64,000 nucleotides of DNA from positions 1,376,001 through 1,440,000 of the forward strand of contig CAWHAE010000012.1 of assembly GCA_963827235.1 (NCBI GenBank), read 5' to 3'. Position numbers and translations under genes: made by a program. The DNA is from an uncultured bacterium (lineage in GTDB: Bacteria; Chloroflexota; UBA5177; JANWHV01). Of this stretch, positions 13,358-19,152 are shown one piece after another (position 1 is the first letter of the stretch; each line of letters starts with the position of its first letter). Below the pieces are notes generated by a model that saw only the letters and a program-made list of their open reading frames with translations, did no database searches and was not told the DNA's origin.

Positions 13358-13851
13358 AGCACCCCGTGCGCGCTGGCGAGAAACGTCGCCTGAGCTCCGG
13401 ACCCTGTCGTGCGAACGACCAAGCGGCTCTACTGGCATTGTAGTGGCTGCAGGCTCACGCGTCCTCGTCACGTGTAGCCAAGTGCCTTCCGTGTGGACCG
13501 TGGGCGGCCCGTGTGATTACCGCTTCATCCGTGGAATAGAATGAGCACGACGCTGATTCTGCTGCCATGCTCAGCGTAGAATGGTGCACGGTTCAAGCGT
13601 AGAAAAAGTACGCTGATCGGGTCTCAAGCGTGGAGACGAGCGCGACCTAGCCGCTGACCTTCAATGGTACGCGAGCGGCGCGAGCCGAAGCCAGCCGCAT
13701 GGGCGGAATCGCGTCCAACAGCCACGAGAGCGTTTCACAGGCCGCTGGAGGGCGGCTCGGGACCGTGGGTCGCCAATACGCTAAGCTATAGCAAGGCTTG
13801 GATTACCATGAGGAGAGTGCGTCGGATGTGCGGTCTACGAGGACTTGGCAA

Positions 13852-14116
13852 GTGATCACCTTTCCCGTCTTCCATCGACTGGACATTGACAAGTACGCCT
13901 TGTTCCCTGGTGGCGACGGGCGGTCATCAGGGCTTCATGTCTACTTCATGTCTGGCATGACCCTGATTCTTGGATCCAATGGTTTGGGCAAGACAACGCT
14001 CATCACAATACTCTATCGCATGCTGACGGGCCCTTTCGACGTCCCGGCGCTCTCTGGTGGGGGTGCAGTGGGAACCAGCAGCCTGGAGCCCAGGCCCTTG
14101 TCTCCATCTGCTCGAA
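13852..14116 (+). pseudogene. SMC/Rad50-like ABC ATPase, 5' part interrupted by the recombinase element
   Basis: Walker A GSNGLGKTT. Joins 17378 in frame once the element is removed. Confidence 0.85.
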
Positions 14117-14690
14117 CCAAGACCAAGCCATTGCAGGGACGCTGCCTAGTGGTGATAAGCTACTGGGCTATACCATAGTCCAATATCCCGGTCATCCCCT
14201 CGCTGGCCGCAGCGTCCCCGTGGTACGGCGCTACGGTCGCCGCGAGCGAGGGCAGTGGGTGATCGAACTGCCGGATGGCAGCCGGCAATACCTTCCCGCC
14301 TCCTGGTGTTCGCCGCTCGTTGCGGCAGAAGGAGCGCTTCCTGTGCCCGCATCGTCCCCGGATGAATCGTCCGATGGTGGTGCCCGTCCGCTGCTGAGCG
14401 TGACCGCGCTGCGTGACCTGGCTGCCCTGGTGCGTCGCCTGCAGGAGGCGGCAGCCCCGCGTGGAGAGGAGCAGGGCGATGCAGGGGACGCAGGAGTGGC
14501 CGTGCCCGGAAGCGAACGAGCGGACGGGCGTGGTGAGCAGCGGGAGCGGGGTGGTGGCGTTGCCGAACTGGGAGAGCTTCCAGGAGGCGGACCGGCGCCA
14601 GCTGGTGCAGACCATCCTGCACGTGGCGCGTCGGCAGGTGGAGCAAGCGGGCCCGGCAGACCGACTCCGCGGAAAGTGAGGCAGCCGTGA
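14116..14690 (+). CDS. DUF5372/Y4bD-like protein whose start codon lies at the element's right end (17364)
   Basis: Frame is open from the left end: TIVQYPGHPLAGRSVPVVRR...ELPDGSRQYLPASW. Its stop overlaps the recombinase start (GTGA). Confidence 0.7.
14479..14679 (+). CDS. small overlapping accessory protein (66 aa)
   Basis: GGAGAGGAG RBS and ATG, then PNWESFQEADRRQLVQTILHVARR amphipathic helix. Confidence 0.5.
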   Translation: MQGTQEWPCPEANERTGVVSSGSGVVALPNWESFQEADRRQLVQTILHVARRQVEQAGPADRLRGK

Positions 14691-16948
14691 GCGCGAACAC
14701 AGCGGCAGGCGCGGTGTGGGACCAGGTGGCGGCAGGTACGGCCGATCCCAAAGTCCGGGCCCAGCACCTGGGCCGCCAGGCGCTGATCTACGTGCGCCAA
14801 TCCAGTCCCAACCAGGTACAACGCCACCCCGAAAGCGCGCGCCGGCAATATGGGTTGGTCGAGCGAGCCGCCCAGTTGGGCTGGCCACGCGATCAGATTG
14901 TGGTCATCGATGAGGACCAGGGCAAGAGCGGCGCGGGCAGCGCCGCCAGCCAGGGTCGTGATGGCTTTGCCCGGCTGGCCGCTGCCGTCAGCCTGGGTGA
15001 GGTCGGCTTAGTGCTGGCGCTGGAGGTGGCCCGGCTGGCGCGCAATTCGGCGGAGTGGTATCGCTTGCTCGAACTCGCCGGCTACAGCGGCACCCTGATC
15101 GCCGACGAGGCGACCGTCTACGATCCTCGGCTCTTCAATGACCGCCTGCTCTTGGGCCTGCGGGGAACGATCAGCGAGGTGGAACTGCATTGCATCCAGG
15201 AGCGCCTCCACGGCGCCCGCATGAGCAAGGCACAGCGCGGAGACTTACCGATCCGCCTGCCTGCTGGCTACCTGGCGGACCACGCCGGCCGCGTCGAACT
15301 CGATCCCGACCAGGAAGTGCAAGGGGCGATACGGACGATCTTCGCCCAATTTGAGGGGCTGGGCACCGTCACCGCCGTGCTGCACTTCTTCACCGCGCAC
15401 GGGCTGCTGGTGCCCCGGCGCCGCTGGCACGCCGAGAGCGGGTCGCAGATCGTGTGGATGCGGCCCAGCTACCAGGCATTGCACACGGTGCTCACCAATC
15501 CCGTCTATGCCGGGGCCTACGTCTACGGGCAGCGCGGACCGGCCGCGGATTTGGGGGCGCCAAAGCGGCGCCACCGGTATGCCGCGGAGGAAGCGGCGGT
15601 GCTGCTGCGCGACCACCACCCCGCGTATATTAGCTGGGAACGCTTTCTCGCCACGCGGGCAACCCTGCAGGACAATGCCAGCCAGTTCCCCGCGAGCAGA
15701 GGCGCACCGCGGCGCGGGCATGGTCTCTTGCAAGGCCTCGTGGTCTGCGGCCGGTGTGGCTGCCGCATGCGGCTGCAGTACGGCGACACCAGCACTGCGT
15801 ACGTCTGCATCACGCGGCATCAACGCTACGGGGAGCCGCTCTGCCAGAGCCTGACCATGGACCACGTCGACCGCGCCGTCAGCGAGGCGTTCCTAGCGGT
15901 CATCGCGCCGGCACAGGTCGCGGCGGCCCTGGCGCTGGCGGAAGACGTGGAGCGCGACCGGGCTGCTGCCCAGCGCCAATGGGAGTTGCGGCTGGAGCGG
16001 GCTCGCTACGAGGCCGAACGGGCCTTCCGGCAGTACGACCTCTGCGAGCCGGAGAACCGGCTGGTGGCGCGGGAGCTGGAAGGGCGCTGGAATGGCACGC
16101 TGCGCGAGGTGAGTGCGCTCGAGGCACAGTACCGGCAGGAGCAGGACCGCAGCCTGGCGCCGCTCACCCCCGCAGAACAGACCGCGATCTGGCAGCTCGT
16201 GGGCGACATGCGTGCCCTCTGGGCGGCAACGCAGACGACCATGGAGGATCGCAAGCGCCTGCTGCGCTGTCTCATCCGCGAGGTGGTGCTTCTGCGCGAC
16301 GACCGGCCCAGAGCGACGGGTGGCCTGACGACCATCCGCATTGGCTGGTGCAGCGGCGCCTGGAGCACCCTGCAGGTGCACCGGCCCGGCAGTGGCGATG
16401 CCGCCAACACGCCGGAGGCCGTCCTGAGCCGGATTCGGGGGCTGGCGCAGGACCATGCCGACGATCAAGTCGCCCGGATCCTGAATGCGGAAGGTCTGCA
16501 AACGCGGCAAGGTCTGCCCTGGACCTACCTGCGGGTGCAGCAGGTCCGCCTGCGCCACCGCATCCCGACCGCCTGTCCGATCGTACCGCGCGACGGCGGC
16601 CCTCGCGGCGATGGTCTGGTGCCGGCGGGTACCGTCGCCGCCCAACTGGGCGTGGCGCGATCGGTGGTGGCGGAGTGGTGCCGGTGCGGCTTTCTGCGCG
16701 CCGAGCAGAAGGCGAGACTGGATCCCCGCTGGATCCAGCTCACCGCGGAGGACCGGGCGCGTCTGGACGGGACGCTGGCCGCGCAGGGCTACGGCCAGTG
16801 GCGGATCCGTGACGCCCAGCAGGTGCTCGGGCTGAACGCCGAGGCGCTGTACGCGCAGGTGCGAGCAGGCCAGCTGGTGGCCTATCGCGCGCACGTCGGG
16901 GCGCACTGGGAGTGGCGGGTCGGTCCGGCCACGCCGCCTGAACCGTAA
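14687..16948 (+). CDS. large serine recombinase (resolvase, recombinase, Zn ribbon, coiled coil, C-terminal HTH extension)
   Basis: IYVRQSS catalytic Ser, DEDQGKSG, RLARN, LTNPVYAG, CGRCG...YVC...LC. 753 aa. Confidence 0.93.
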   Translation: MSANTAAGAVWDQVAAGTADPKVRAQHLGRQALIYVRQSSPNQVQRHPESARRQYGLVERAAQLGWPRDQIVVIDEDQGKSGAGSAASQGRDGFARLAAAVSLGEVGLVLALEVARLARNSAEWYRLLELAGYSGTLIADEATVYDPRLFNDRLLLGLRGTISEVELHCIQERLHGARMSKAQRGDLPIRLPAGYLADHAGRVELDPDQEVQGAIRTIFAQFEGLGTVTAVLHFFTAHGLLVPRRRWHAESGSQIVWMRPSYQALHTVLTNPVYAGAYVYGQRGPAADLGAPKRRHRYAAEEAAVLLRDHHPAYISWERFLATRATLQDNASQFPASRGAPRRGHGLLQGLVVCGRCGCRMRLQYGDTSTAYVCITRHQRYGEPLCQSLTMDHVDRAVSEAFLAVIAPAQVAAALALAEDVERDRAAAQRQWELRLERARYEAERAFRQYDLCEPENRLVARELEGRWNGTLREVSALEAQYRQEQDRSLAPLTPAEQTAIWQLVGDMRALWAATQTTMEDRKRLLRCLIREVVLLRDDRPRATGGLTTIRIGWCSGAWSTLQVHRPGSGDAANTPEAVLSRIRGLAQDHADDQVARILNAEGLQTRQGLPWTYLRVQQVRLRHRIPTACPIVPRDGGPRGDGLVPAGTVAAQLGVARSVVAEWCRCGFLRAEQKARLDPRWIQLTAEDRARLDGTLAAQGYGQWRIRDAQQVLGLNAEALYAQVRAGQLVAYRAHVGAHWEWRVGPATPPEP

Positions 16949-16971
16949 CGTGACGCATCAGGGAGACCGCC

Positions 16972-17295
16972 ATGCCCCAGCCACGCCGCTATCAGGACAA
17001 CGCCGCCAAGCAACGCGCCTACCGCACGCGCCAGGAACAGGCCCGGCGCGAGGAGCAACAGGCCAAGGGACTGCCGCCCGCCCCGCCGTTGCCGACCCTG
17101 CCCAGCCGCGAACGCTGGCAGGCGCTCCTCACCCAGGCGCGGCTGGCCCTAGAAACCGCGCGCGACGAAATGCACGCATATTACGACGACCGGTCCGACG
17201 CCTGGCAGCAGGGCGAGCGTGCGGCGACACTCGCCGAGGAGATCGAGCAGCTGGACGTGATCCTGGAGGAACTTGAGGCAGTGCTATTGCCTTAA
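16972..17295 (+). CDS. small helical protein of the element
   Basis: 107 aa with GGGAG RBS, YQDNAAKQRAYR motif, coiled-coil-like C-terminus. Confidence 0.75.
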   Translation: MPQPRRYQDNAAKQRAYRTRQEQARREEQQAKGLPPAPPLPTLPSRERWQALLTQARLALETARDEMHAYYDDRSDAWQQGERAATLAEEIEQLDVILEELEAVLLP

Positions 17296-17377
17296 ACGCC
17301 CAACGCAGCGGCTGACGTGCCCGCTGATAGGCGGGCACGCCTCATCAAAGGAGATGCATTCGAATGGGCTCACTGAA

Positions 17378-19152
17378 GGTTCTTTGCACAGCGTGTGATG
17401 GACAACGCATACAACGCAACCGCAAAGTTGCACTTCAGCCTCGGTGACCACCGGATCGTTGTTGAGCGACGCCTGCGCGATATGGCTCTAGCCTACTTCG
17501 CAGTCGATGGGCGAGAATGTACAGCGCAGGAAGATGATTACCAGCAGGAAGTCGTGCGTCTGGTCGATGTGTGGTCGTTCGGCGATTGGATTTTGCTGCT
17601 TCGCAGCCTAGTGTTCTACTTCGAGGATCGCCGCGCGCTGGTTTGGGATAAATCCGCACAGCGCCAGGTGCTCCGCACGCTCTTGCTACCTGCAGCCACG
17701 TCTCGCAAGTGGGCAGAGGACGAGCGCTCGGTGCTCGAACTGGATAGTCGTGTTCGAAACTTGAGTGCAGCGTTCTTTCGAGAAGAACAAGACGTGGCCA
17801 GAGAAGAGGGCAAGACGGCTGCTGGCGCAGCCGTCATCGCCGAGTTGAAGACGTTGGAGCCGCTCCAGCAAGCAGATGAAGCGAAGCTTGAGGAGTTCAA
17901 TTCGAGGCTTGTCAGCCTTGATGCCGATCGACACCAAGGTCGCCTACGCGTTCTCAAGGCCGAACAAGAACGTGAGAGCCAATACCGCGAGATTGAGCAC
18001 GCCAGACTGACAGCACTCGATGCGAGTTTCCCTAGCAAGTCGGACACGGCTAGGTACATCCTCGCCCAACTCCTATCTGATTAGCACTGTCTGGTTTGTG
18101 GTCACCACGTCCCAGCGGTGGCAGATCTCCTAGAGGAGCGCATCTCAGAGGAGCGTTGCGTGGTTTGTGGCTCTGACTTGTCACAAGAGGAGGCGGACCG
18201 GCCCACCTCGGCAAGCAAAGTCGCGGATCGCCGCGTGAAAGTTGTGACCGGCGGGTTGGCCCCGATTGAGGCCGAGGTAGCCGGCGCTCGTGAACAACTC
18301 GCGGCAGCGGAACAGCACTATGACGGGTGCCTGCGTGAAGTTAGGCGCCTGAACGATTCGGTCATCGCGAGGTCAGCGCGGATGGACGAGTTGATCAAGC
18401 AGCTGCCTCCCGGGGAGGCTCAGCTACATAGGGCCCGACAGGGCCTCGCGCTCCTCCGGGGCCGGCTCGACGAACTCCGCGCGGATCTCGTGCGGCAGCG
18501 TCACGAATTCGAGGCGTTCGTAGCTGACGAGCAGAGAGGGATGGCAGTAAGCTCCGAGCGCATACCGGCCGCGTTCGCTGACTACGCGAAGGAGTTCTTG
18601 TTCGAAGACTCAGAACTCACCTGGTCGCCTCAGCGCGCACAAGTGGGCCAGACGGGCAATGCCGTGGTATATCCGGCCTTTGAGCTTGAGATGACTGGCG
18701 CATCCTTCCCGACGCCTATTCGACGCAGCGGACCAGACGAGGTCTCTGAGAGTCAACGCGAGTTCATCGATCTAGCCTTCCGCATGGCGCTCATTGACGT
18801 CATCGGCGCCGACAGAGTGGGAAGCATAGTCATTGATGCACCGGAAACCTCGCTCGATGCTCTGTTCGTGTCCCGAGCTGCTGGCGTACTGGCCCGATTC
18901 GCGGAACCGGCTCGCGGCAATCGGCTGATTATCACGTCGAACCTGATCGAAGGCCAGTTGATTCCAACACTCCTGAGGCTAGCCTCGACGCCTGATGATC
19001 GCTCGAAACGGCTGGTGAACCTGTTTAAGCTTGCCGCGCCGACGGCAGCGGTCCGCGCATTCGGGGACAGATACGATTCTATTCTGCAGGCTATGCTCGC
19101 GCAGGTTGACAGTGGAGGAGAAGCCCTCAACTCGGCGGAGCCTGTACAATGA
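17378..19152 (+). pseudogene. SMC/Rad50-like ATPase, 3' part with in-frame TAG at 18082
   Basis: Coiled coils, CLVC...CVVC hook, signature-like VSESQREF, Walker B IVIDAPETSLD. ORFs 17395 and 18118 share one frame. Confidence 0.85.

Follow-up and report, generated by a model that had tools for sequence, protein, structure and literature searches.

A 64,000-nucleotide stretch of the genome of an uncultured Chloroflexota bacterium (contig CAWHAE010000012.1, positions 1,376,001 to 1,440,000; hereafter the window, with positions counted from its first letter) carries at 14114-17376 a 3.26-kb transposon of the large serine recombinase (LSR) type with a GA core on either side, and this element probably contains a coding sequence (CDS), here called ORF-A, that is built only at the junction of its joined ends. 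The gene would be split by the ends of the element, with its ribosome-binding site (RBS), start codon and three further codons on the right and the remainder, from the junction codon (core A) onwards, on the left; only the joined ends (attP) would hold the complete open reading frame (ORF) of 195 codons. Judging from sequence comparison, both the split layout and its conservation extend well beyond the window. An expression signal that is divided between the ends and assembled on joining was found at 29/29 located right ends, the assembled frame was complete in 26/26 elements, and the same arrangement recurred in 6/6 distant proteobacterial elements. These counts answer the question posed by the original prediction, a model's reading of the window alone, namely whether a right-end RBS and start are kept in frame with the left-end ORF among homologues.

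Start signals at the right end of the element

Searches with the ORF-A protein yielded 34 matches when word-indexed and 58 when exhaustive, and the related loci came from species genomes (one, a Chloroflexota metagenome-assembled genome) and from metagenome contigs (92, of which 80 were kept). Only one other clear match was found among 401 genomes sampled from the window's phylum, and the family is therefore patchy. A protein of 4816 aa that matched in 17 stretches (P0037) is a CarboxypepD_reg/PEGA repeat protein and was treated as unrelated.

Right ends were located in 29 elements, comprising that of the window, 23 loci found through an 11-mer of the end, and five members of a more distant clade found by alignment of the region 3' of the accessory ORF. 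Some of these rows are near-duplicates (L086/L087, L074/L075, L029-L031 and L023/L028), and five loci in which no right end was located despite enough sequence after the LSR (L035, L062, L069, L070, which may have a right end with a different core, and L072) were excluded from all counts. At every one of the 29 right ends, a start codon lies exactly four codons before core A and in frame with it (ATG in 22, TTG in six, GTG in one, CTG in none), in a context close to ...AAAGGAGGTGCAGTAG-N-xTG GGC TCA CTG A/ (the slash marks the junction here and below). Located 8-9 nt upstream of this start is a Shine-Dalgarno (SD)-like motif with the consensus AAAGGAGG, which is weakened at some right ends, such as those of L016, L012 and L074. 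The elements range from 2917 to 3411 bp across the located family members, and each of the 26 whose two ends fall within a single locus has a joined frame that runs uninterrupted for 190-202 codons, where the original prediction had reckoned with a frame kept by chance in about 1 in 3.

What had been read from the window itself also stood up. The motifs AAAGGAG (17347-17353), ATG GGC TCA CTG A (17364-17376) and GTGA (14687-14690), the last shared by the ORF-A stop and the recombinase start, all lie where they had been placed, and the left frame, described as open from 14115 with GTG 14220 as its first start, is in fact open stop-to-stop from 13890, that GTG (codon 36) being its first ATG, GTG or TTG. 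An in-frame join does give the expected gene of 195 codons (4 + 191), and the 107-aa ORF, ORF-B and the recombinase all lie on the + strand.

The position of the SD is informative with respect to the recombinase site. A comparison of 23 elements showed that the inverted-repeat symmetry of the ends stops 20 nt from the core; the SD is located at a distance of 21-28, outside the symmetric part, and the left end has no mirrored SD, so that the inverted repeat does not explain the motif. The SD is retained where it overlaps the last codons of the LSR gene, and equally in the window's clade, L086/L091 and the L037 clade, in which it falls in non-coding sequence. In the 2.9-kb elements, the LSR stop codon TAG precedes the right-end start by 1 nt in five of the six checked and by 4 nt in the sixth, and with so short a distance LSR, ORF-A and LSR again would follow one another without a gap in a circle. 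One start that happens to be in frame within four codons is not a rare event; what exceeds chance is that it is conserved and that it has shifted between lineages without leaving the frame.

Some further features were seen near the right end. A second ATG directly follows the SD (17355-17357 in the window) in the frame of the host gene; it is not conserved, relatives having GTG and then TAG. A perfect 8-bp stem (GTGCCCGC...GCGGGCAC) at 17317-17338, just upstream of the right-end SD, is followed by no T-run and is not evident at the related right ends of L014 and L086. In L042, the left flank (positions 1-85, ...AGTATACGACCCACTGA/) looks like a decayed right end of this family; the element may have inserted beside the remnant of an earlier one, or into a target similar to the joint.

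Selection on the left-end frame

The first 20 codons of ORF-A contain no stop in any of the 58 unique left ends (0/58), whereas the other two frames are interrupted in 9/58 and 38/58. Within codons 8-20, differences fall on the three codon positions as 38/39/76, and the ratio of non-synonymous to synonymous polymorphism (pN/pS) is 0.46 compared with ~1.2 in the other frames (27 independent pairs). The same skew (25/24/50, p = 0.0014) is found in the 38 of 55 elements that have no ATG, GTG or TTG in codons 1-20, and the codons of the ORF-A domain (21-65) have a pN/pS of 0.17. Judged by these substitution patterns, the N-terminal codons are under coding-type selection even in elements that lack a start of their own. 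Host DNA provides such a start in a minority of cases: an in-frame ATG, GTG or TTG before a stop is supplied by only 18/58 unique host flanks and by neither flank of the two copies in this genome, and at the site used most often a TGA four codons upstream shuts the frame.

In the window's clade, the closest relatives of the element (L013-L015, L044 and L046, 76-87% identical), codons 21 and 10, which are start codons in many other homologues, read ATA and CTG, and the frame is open all the same; in total, 6/58 homologues have no start in the first 25 codons. At its other extremity, the ORF-A stop overlaps the LSR start (xTGA) in 51/55 elements. That the frame stays open up to this overlap despite an indel-rich linker fits a role in translational coupling. 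Two database proteins, P0002 and P0066, begin with MGS... and MPS..., respectively, just upstream of the left-end residues; these N-termini could stem from tandem copies, from joined ends or from host starts that are there by chance.

The 3' third of ORF-A also encodes ORF-B in the +1 frame. ORF-B is characterized by the conserved sequence LP.WESF...DR..LV..IL.AARRQV, and an upstream ATG in its frame is retained in 53/54 homologues. A programmed frameshift from the N-terminal domain of ORF-A into ORF-B was considered and is not favoured, given that ORF-B has its own SD and an ATG in 53/54 and that the shift would have to be +1.

The same arrangement in proteobacterial elements with different ends

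A tblastn search of the ORF-A domain against plasmids recovered weak relatives in Mesorhizobium, Rhizobium and Cupriavidus, to which a nucleotide search added relatives in Pseudomonas and Mycetohabitans. Six elements were compared (L097-L101 and L103; L102, which contains nested elements, was left out), and all share the gene order of a DUF5372-like ORF, a small overlapping ORF of the ORF-B type, and an LSR clearly homologous to that of the window. All six are inserted antisense in RVT_1 reverse-transcriptase (RT) genes, at a ...SF/FD.I.H motif and with an AA core; the flanks of L097, for instance, correspond to RVT_1 profile positions 2-80 and 79-130. Their end sequences (right ...GGGCATT...GATCC[AA], left [AA]GGAAAC...) are unlike those of the window. 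An in-frame ATG is nevertheless present 3-5 codons before the junction codon in 6/6, at three different positions, and the last 30 nt contain no out-of-frame ATG in any of the six. Four of the six lack a canonical start in the first 30 codons of the DUF5372 ORF, the joined ORFs comprise 118-167 codons, and the ORF stop overlaps the LSR start as ATGA in five of six. Because the start has moved and yet remained in frame, in a lineage whose ends differ, we regard these elements as the strongest single argument that the right-end codon is selected as a start. Five annotated records list ORF-B and the recombinase with no CDS over the DUF5372 part, which is only suggestive, as the PLSDB gene table is incomplete.

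L097 (5930-10060), L098 (3503-6210) and L099 (4948-7691) lie antisense in RVT_1 genes; next to L100 the annotation gives a group II intron maturase domain, and in a related record (H17) it gives ltrA. The LSR gene of L097 is itself split by an IS256-family insertion (about L097 8078-9453). A second, different LSR gene (583 aa, L097 3980-5866) ends ~100 nt from the left end of the first element and overlaps the 72 codons that are left of the RT gene, as would be expected if a further LSR element had inserted ~50 codons from the first in this gene. The nested serine-recombinase elements of L102 (3563-7800) comprise an ORF-A-like frame (...VVQYPHHPQAGERLTVVRR...) and its LSR beside a fragment of another LSR gene, which is cut at a KGTISEVELH motif; the LSR of L102 is cut in turn by an LSR element on the opposite strand that has a DUF5372-like ORF of its own.

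The element, its two copies and their host genes

The ends of the element and its mobility are real. A second copy on another contig of the same genome (C9) is 100% identical across exactly the stretch corresponding to window 14112-17376, and both copies have the same left (...TCGA/ACCAAGACC...) and right (...GGGCTCACTGA/flank) junctions. With the element removed at the GA core, the flanks of the first copy, that of the window, join in frame into an AAA_23/SMC-like ATPase gene, and those of the second into a DDE_3 (IS630-type) transposase gene. The left flank of copy 2 corresponds to DDE_3 profile positions 21-122 of 146 and ends ...SWLNQI(E), and its right flank continues IYFSIVQRKVL. Two fully identical copies at different loci, with both host frames restored, indicate that the element is mobile and has moved recently. 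For copy 1, the search for an empty site gave only a partial 81% match of the left flank in one genome of the same genus, and for copy 2 the genome holds no second copy of the IS630-type host, so that insertion is argued from the restored reading frames. The features of the element are listed in Table 1.

Table 1 Features of the element and the interrupted host gene in the window
Feature	Position	Strand	Basis or remark
5' part of interrupted host P-loop ATPase gene, AAA_23-like	13798..14113	+	Pfam AAA_23, E=4.6e-6
attL copy of the GA crossover core	14114..14115	.	GA at both junctions of both genomic copies
ORF-A body, 191 codons; predicted SH3-like barrel and helix, distant DUF5372 relative	14115..14690	+	first canonical start at codon 36
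Left terminal imperfect inverted repeat, presumed recombinase half-site	14116..14135	.	12/20 bases complementary to right arm
ORF-B (66 aa)	14479..14679	+	+1 frame within the 3' third of ORF-A; own SD (GGAGAGGAG) and ATG
Large serine recombinase, 753 aa	14687..16948	+	Pfam Resolvase, Recombinase, Zn_ribbon_recom
107-aa accessory ORF	16972..17295	+	only in longer family members; absent from 2.9-kb elements
Shine-Dalgarno motif AAAGGAG	17347..17353	+	just outside the inverted repeat
Right terminal imperfect inverted repeat	17355..17374	.	end-symmetry comparison
ATG, three codons and first base of the junction codon (ATG GGC TCA CTG A)	17364..17376	+	start at the same position in 29/29
attR copy of the GA core	17375..17376	.	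junction sequences of both copies
3' part of host ATPase gene	17377..19152	+	in frame after element removal; one in-frame stop 18082-18084

The LSR matches its domains in the order PF00239 (1.1e-14), PF07508 (5.8e-16) and PF13408 (7e-10) and is 60-84% identical to 19 homologues. R37, Q38 and S39 of the YVRQSS motif are invariant in the 20 aligned LSR homologues (20/20), and S39 is the residue that we take to be the nucleophile. The nearest NCBIfam model is that of XisF, the fdxN element excision recombinase (NF041201), at 73.5 bits compared with a cut-off of 375. Neither ORF-B nor the 107-aa ORF matches a Pfam or NCBIfam model. Partial relatives of the 107-aa ORF region (72-90% identity) are found at three genome sites outside the element copies (G000 C17:213761-214026, C13:6319-6412 and C10:313678-313718).

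The in-frame stop of the host ATPase reads ...AQLLSD*HCLVCG..., and past it the frame runs into a 344-aa ORF (18118-19152) with CxxC pairs and a Walker-B-like ...IVIDAPE. From its sequence, the interrupted host gene may be a pseudogene, two genes or a case of read-through, and it could be a defence-type SMC-like ATPase.

Target choice

The second copy exemplifies the usual target of the family. As many as 53/63 unique left flanks encode an IS630-type ...(W/E/D)(L/F/Y)N-x-x-E, under a rule of our own that requires an Asn three codons before the site. The crossover falls in the GA of the Glu codon, which presumably specifies the third catalytic residue of the IS630-type transposase, and element and host gene are co-oriented. 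The same target codon is used across very diverged IS630 subfamilies (L013-L092 left flanks; L002 1380-1503). Copy 1 occupies an off-type site that retains the most conserved of the flank bases, and in L102 the target of an ORF-A-type element appears to be a second LSR gene, at its KGTISEVELH motif. These targets reveal a level at which mobile elements parasitise one another.

ORF-A family, fold and predicted partner

The original prediction had called ORF-A DUF5372/Y4bD-like, and this label proved to be weakly supported. The window's own protein has no Pfam match even at E ≤ 10; in an alignment of this protein with 21 homologues (n = 22), seven members match PF17342 (DUF5372) at E ≤ 1, the best at 5.7e-4, and the DUF5372 ORF of the proteobacterial relative L097 (Cupriavidus) reaches 24.3 bits against a cut-off of 25. 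DUF5372 is also the nearest cluster in the ESM Atlas, with a score of 0.93. This uncharacterised family shares the conserved core that reads YPGHP...VVRRY...ELPDGSRQY.P.SW in the window's family; the window's protein, falling below the Pfam threshold, would be a distant relative of DUF5372.

The AlphaFold model of ORF-A has a mean pLDDT (predicted local distance difference test) of 67, rising to near 90 in the barrel, which is SH3-like and covers residues 18-70; a helix occupies residues 96-113. The first strand of the barrel spans residues 18-22 and hence begins upstream of the internal Met at codon 21. Foldseek detected no counterpart of the model in the PDB at E ≤ 0.001; the nearest structures were generic SH3/KOW barrels (E = 0.016 and above), which suggest no function. 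In a complex model of the LSR with ORF-A residues 1-115, the pair scored 0.67 and the best of three controls 0.00. That mark is reached by 58/80 solved complexes and 2/110 mismatched pairs, a calibration that is only rough here because our own alignments were used. The runs shared at least 62% of contacts, with a partner pLDDT of at least 63, and the contacts involve LSR residues 353-421 (zinc ribbon and start of the coiled coil) and 490-560, and the ORF-A helix at 91-113. ORF-A is thus predicted to bind the LSR at the zinc ribbon and base of the coiled coil, which is presumably where directionality factors act on serine integrases. The original prediction had proposed that the protein could be an integration or directionality cofactor, and this role draws on the one structure model.

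A translational switch and its alternatives

We infer that the element is excised as a circle by crossover at the GA dinucleotide and that translation of ORF-A then begins at the junction start codon. As long as the element is integrated, the SD and start would face outward into host DNA, leaving ORF-A without its N-terminus or silent. Translation of the LSR would in this state rely on its own weak SD (GGTGAGG), and a scan for promoters and terminators found no promoter-like (sigma-70-like) site and no terminator within the element, so that the integrated LSR would probably also need transcription entering from the co-oriented host gene. In the excised form, the joint would set the SD and start before ORF-A and allow both full-length ORF-A and coupled translation of the LSR, the genes of the circle forming one head-to-tail, translationally coupled loop that would favour quick re-integration. 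ORF-A would then be a state-specific partner of the LSR, made at full length only after excision; on the strength of the complex model, we infer that it binds the recombinase, and it would favour re-integration and/or raise LSR synthesis.

Public data were searched for traces of the circle. Contigs of four public runs (X1-X3, DNA; X11, RNA), compared with 13900-17600 at 85% likeness, contained only short pieces of relatives, with no right-to-left joint and none that skipped the element, a result that is uninformative either way; two of the pieces start exactly at 14114. A 17-mer junction pattern had no match in IMG/VR, in 96 of the loci or, at up to one mismatch, in the assembly, data that could not have shown a rare circle.

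ORF-A might instead be translated from the integrated element, the right-end motif and xTG being kept as part of the recombinase site or as C-terminal codons of the LSR and the frame being merely inherited. We consider this unlikely. It would call upon the internal codons 10 or 21 that are starts in many relatives, a non-canonical codon in the window (CTG 14142, ATA 14175 or ATT 14130), or re-initiation after the truncated host gene, whose co-oriented frame ends soon inside the element (13798..14178). The original prediction had itself named starts inside the left end of homologues as evidence against it, and these do in part exist: codon 21, which immediately precedes the YPGHP motif, is ATG in 33/58 homologues, and codon 10 is a start in 17/58 (13 GTG, 3 ATG and 1 TTG); database gene calls likewise begin at the codon-21 Met or one residue later in 14/21. 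Yet codons 8-20 are under selection in the very elements that have no canonical start among their first 20 codons, and the window's version, with no start before codon 36, is present in two identical copies and has therefore moved recently. At the right end, the TG of the start occupies symmetric, presumably recombinase-bound positions that leave only its first base free, and in the 2.9-kb elements LSR codons run through the SD. The SD, however, falls beyond the symmetric part of the repeat and persists in elements in which it codes for nothing, and the proteobacterial start occupies three positions that are always in frame, with no out-of-frame ATG nearby.

Two other explanations carry far less weight. 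That the window's ORF-A is a decaying gene without a start, the recombinase alone moving the element and the right-end ATG being coincidental, is very improbable: the ATA and CTG that its clade has in place of the usual codon-21 ATG and of the codon-10 GTG or ATG of some relatives would suit such decay, as would the failure of Pfam to recognise the protein, but the frame is intact over 191 codons, the closest relatives also lack those starts and are still open, and both the low pN/pS of codons 21-65 and the retained overlap with the LSR start speak for a maintained gene. We give even less credence to the idea that the right-end SD and start drive translation outward into host DNA, for example of the 3' remainder of the interrupted gene. 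The start does face outward in the integrated element, and in copy 2 its frame is open into the flank; this frame is nonetheless +1 relative to the IS630-type host (codon G-A-x, with the element codon starting at core A), the proteobacterial elements are antisense to their host RT gene, and the flanks vary between sites.

Several points weigh against an ORF-A that is completed at the junction, beyond those raised by the internal starts. All elements within a lineage go back to one ancestor, so that the 29/29 right ends cannot be counted as independent, and selection on the att site would in addition purge indels close to the core. Codons 1-7, which lie inside the repeat, lack periodicity (19/11/16, p = 0.34) and are uninformative. 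In the last third of ORF-A, third-position variability follows the frame of ORF-B (nt ~436-525 from the edge), which is under selection there in place of ORF-A's own, and this tail is disordered in the AlphaFold model. The modelled interface with the LSR excludes the 20 junction-dependent residues, and an ORF-A that stimulated excision as recombination directionality factors (RDFs) do would make little sense if made only after excision. No sigma-70-like promoter that could drive transcription across the junction was found in the element. Given the internal starts, integrated copies of many homologues may yield a product without the first 20 residues; where the codon-21 ATG exists, the junction may switch between isoforms instead of turning ORF-A on and off, and strict on/off control would apply to a minority besides the window's clade. 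Of the switch first proposed, the CDS split between start and body is strongly supported by comparison and the coupling to the LSR is in keeping with the overlap in 51/55, while the ORF-B-type selection on the last third tells against it.

Comparison with known systems

A full-text search of the literature, supplements not included, returned no description of a junction-built CDS in LSR elements, no paper containing DUF5372 or y4bD, and no LSR insertion into IS630 or group II intron RT genes, although the supplements of one large LSR survey (PMC10083194) may bear on targets. The available part of that survey does not mention a junction-built CDS. According to the same part, DUF4368 is present in 63% of the LSRs of the TndX/TnpX-like, multi-targeting clade (PMC10083194), unlike in the LSR of the window, in which it has no match at E ≤ 0.01.

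If the proposed arrangement is correct, a conserved accessory CDS with its RBS and start at the opposite end would represent a new mode by which an element reads its own state. The lack of a start in the integrated form would explain why the DUF5372-like ORF is missing from the CDS lists of the annotated plasmid records compared here, and DUF5372 would gain a testable role as an LSR partner. As LSRs are sought-after enzymes for genome engineering, a natural biasing factor and LSRs that recognise coding motifs would be of practical interest. The chances seem to us evenly balanced for the broader proposition that these are widespread minimal LSR transposons (ORF-A/DUF5372, ORF-B and LSR), largely invisible to annotation, which parasitise mobile elements at conserved codons of key genes (the IS630 catalytic Glu, the RVT_1 FFD and apparently the LSR KGTISE) and sense their topology by a translational switch that closes the loop of coupled genes and makes an LSR-binding factor, by which recombination would be directed toward re-integration.

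A close parallel is offered by Tn4451/Tn4453 (TnpX) of Clostridium, likewise transposons moved by an LSR, in which the joining of the ends switches on a transposition gene. Their joint reportedly builds a promoter for the recombinase, and we take the crossover dinucleotide of Tn4451 to be GA as well. The joint of the window's element differs in supplying the RBS, start and first codons of an accessory protein encoded upstream of the recombinase. Circles of insertion sequences (the IS3/IS911, IS30 and IS110/IS492 families) carry junction promoters, and read-through across the joint is said to have been described for Tn916 by Celli and Trieu-Cuot in 1998. In these systems, too, expression is tied to the excised circle and the activity of integrated copies is limited, but the control is transcriptional and the enzymes are others (DDE/DEDD transposases and a tyrosine recombinase), whereas the window's element would split a CDS and its translation signals.

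An attP site within a gene is known from SSV1-type integrases, Mx8 int and the integration-dependent immunity repressors of mycobacteriophages. There, as here, crossover takes place inside a CDS and the integrated and excised products differ; those are tyrosine-integrase systems in which the integrase or repressor itself is split and loses its C-terminal or a large part, whereas in the window's minimal serine-recombinase transposon only the start and four codons are separated. The RDFs of serine integrases (phiC31 gp3, Bxb1 gp47 and SPbeta SprB) resemble ORF-A in being small LSR-adjacent proteins, ORF-A being predicted at the zinc ribbon and base of the coiled coil. ORF-A differs from them in lacking a sequence or detectable fold relation (the best PDB Foldseek match being that at E 0.016) and in that it would be made after excision, opposite to when an excision factor is needed. 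Relative to known cases of activation in the circle, the novelty of the element would reside in the class of enzyme, in the separation of translation signals and four codons of an accessory gene, and in their occurrence in a minimal transposon that targets mobile elements.

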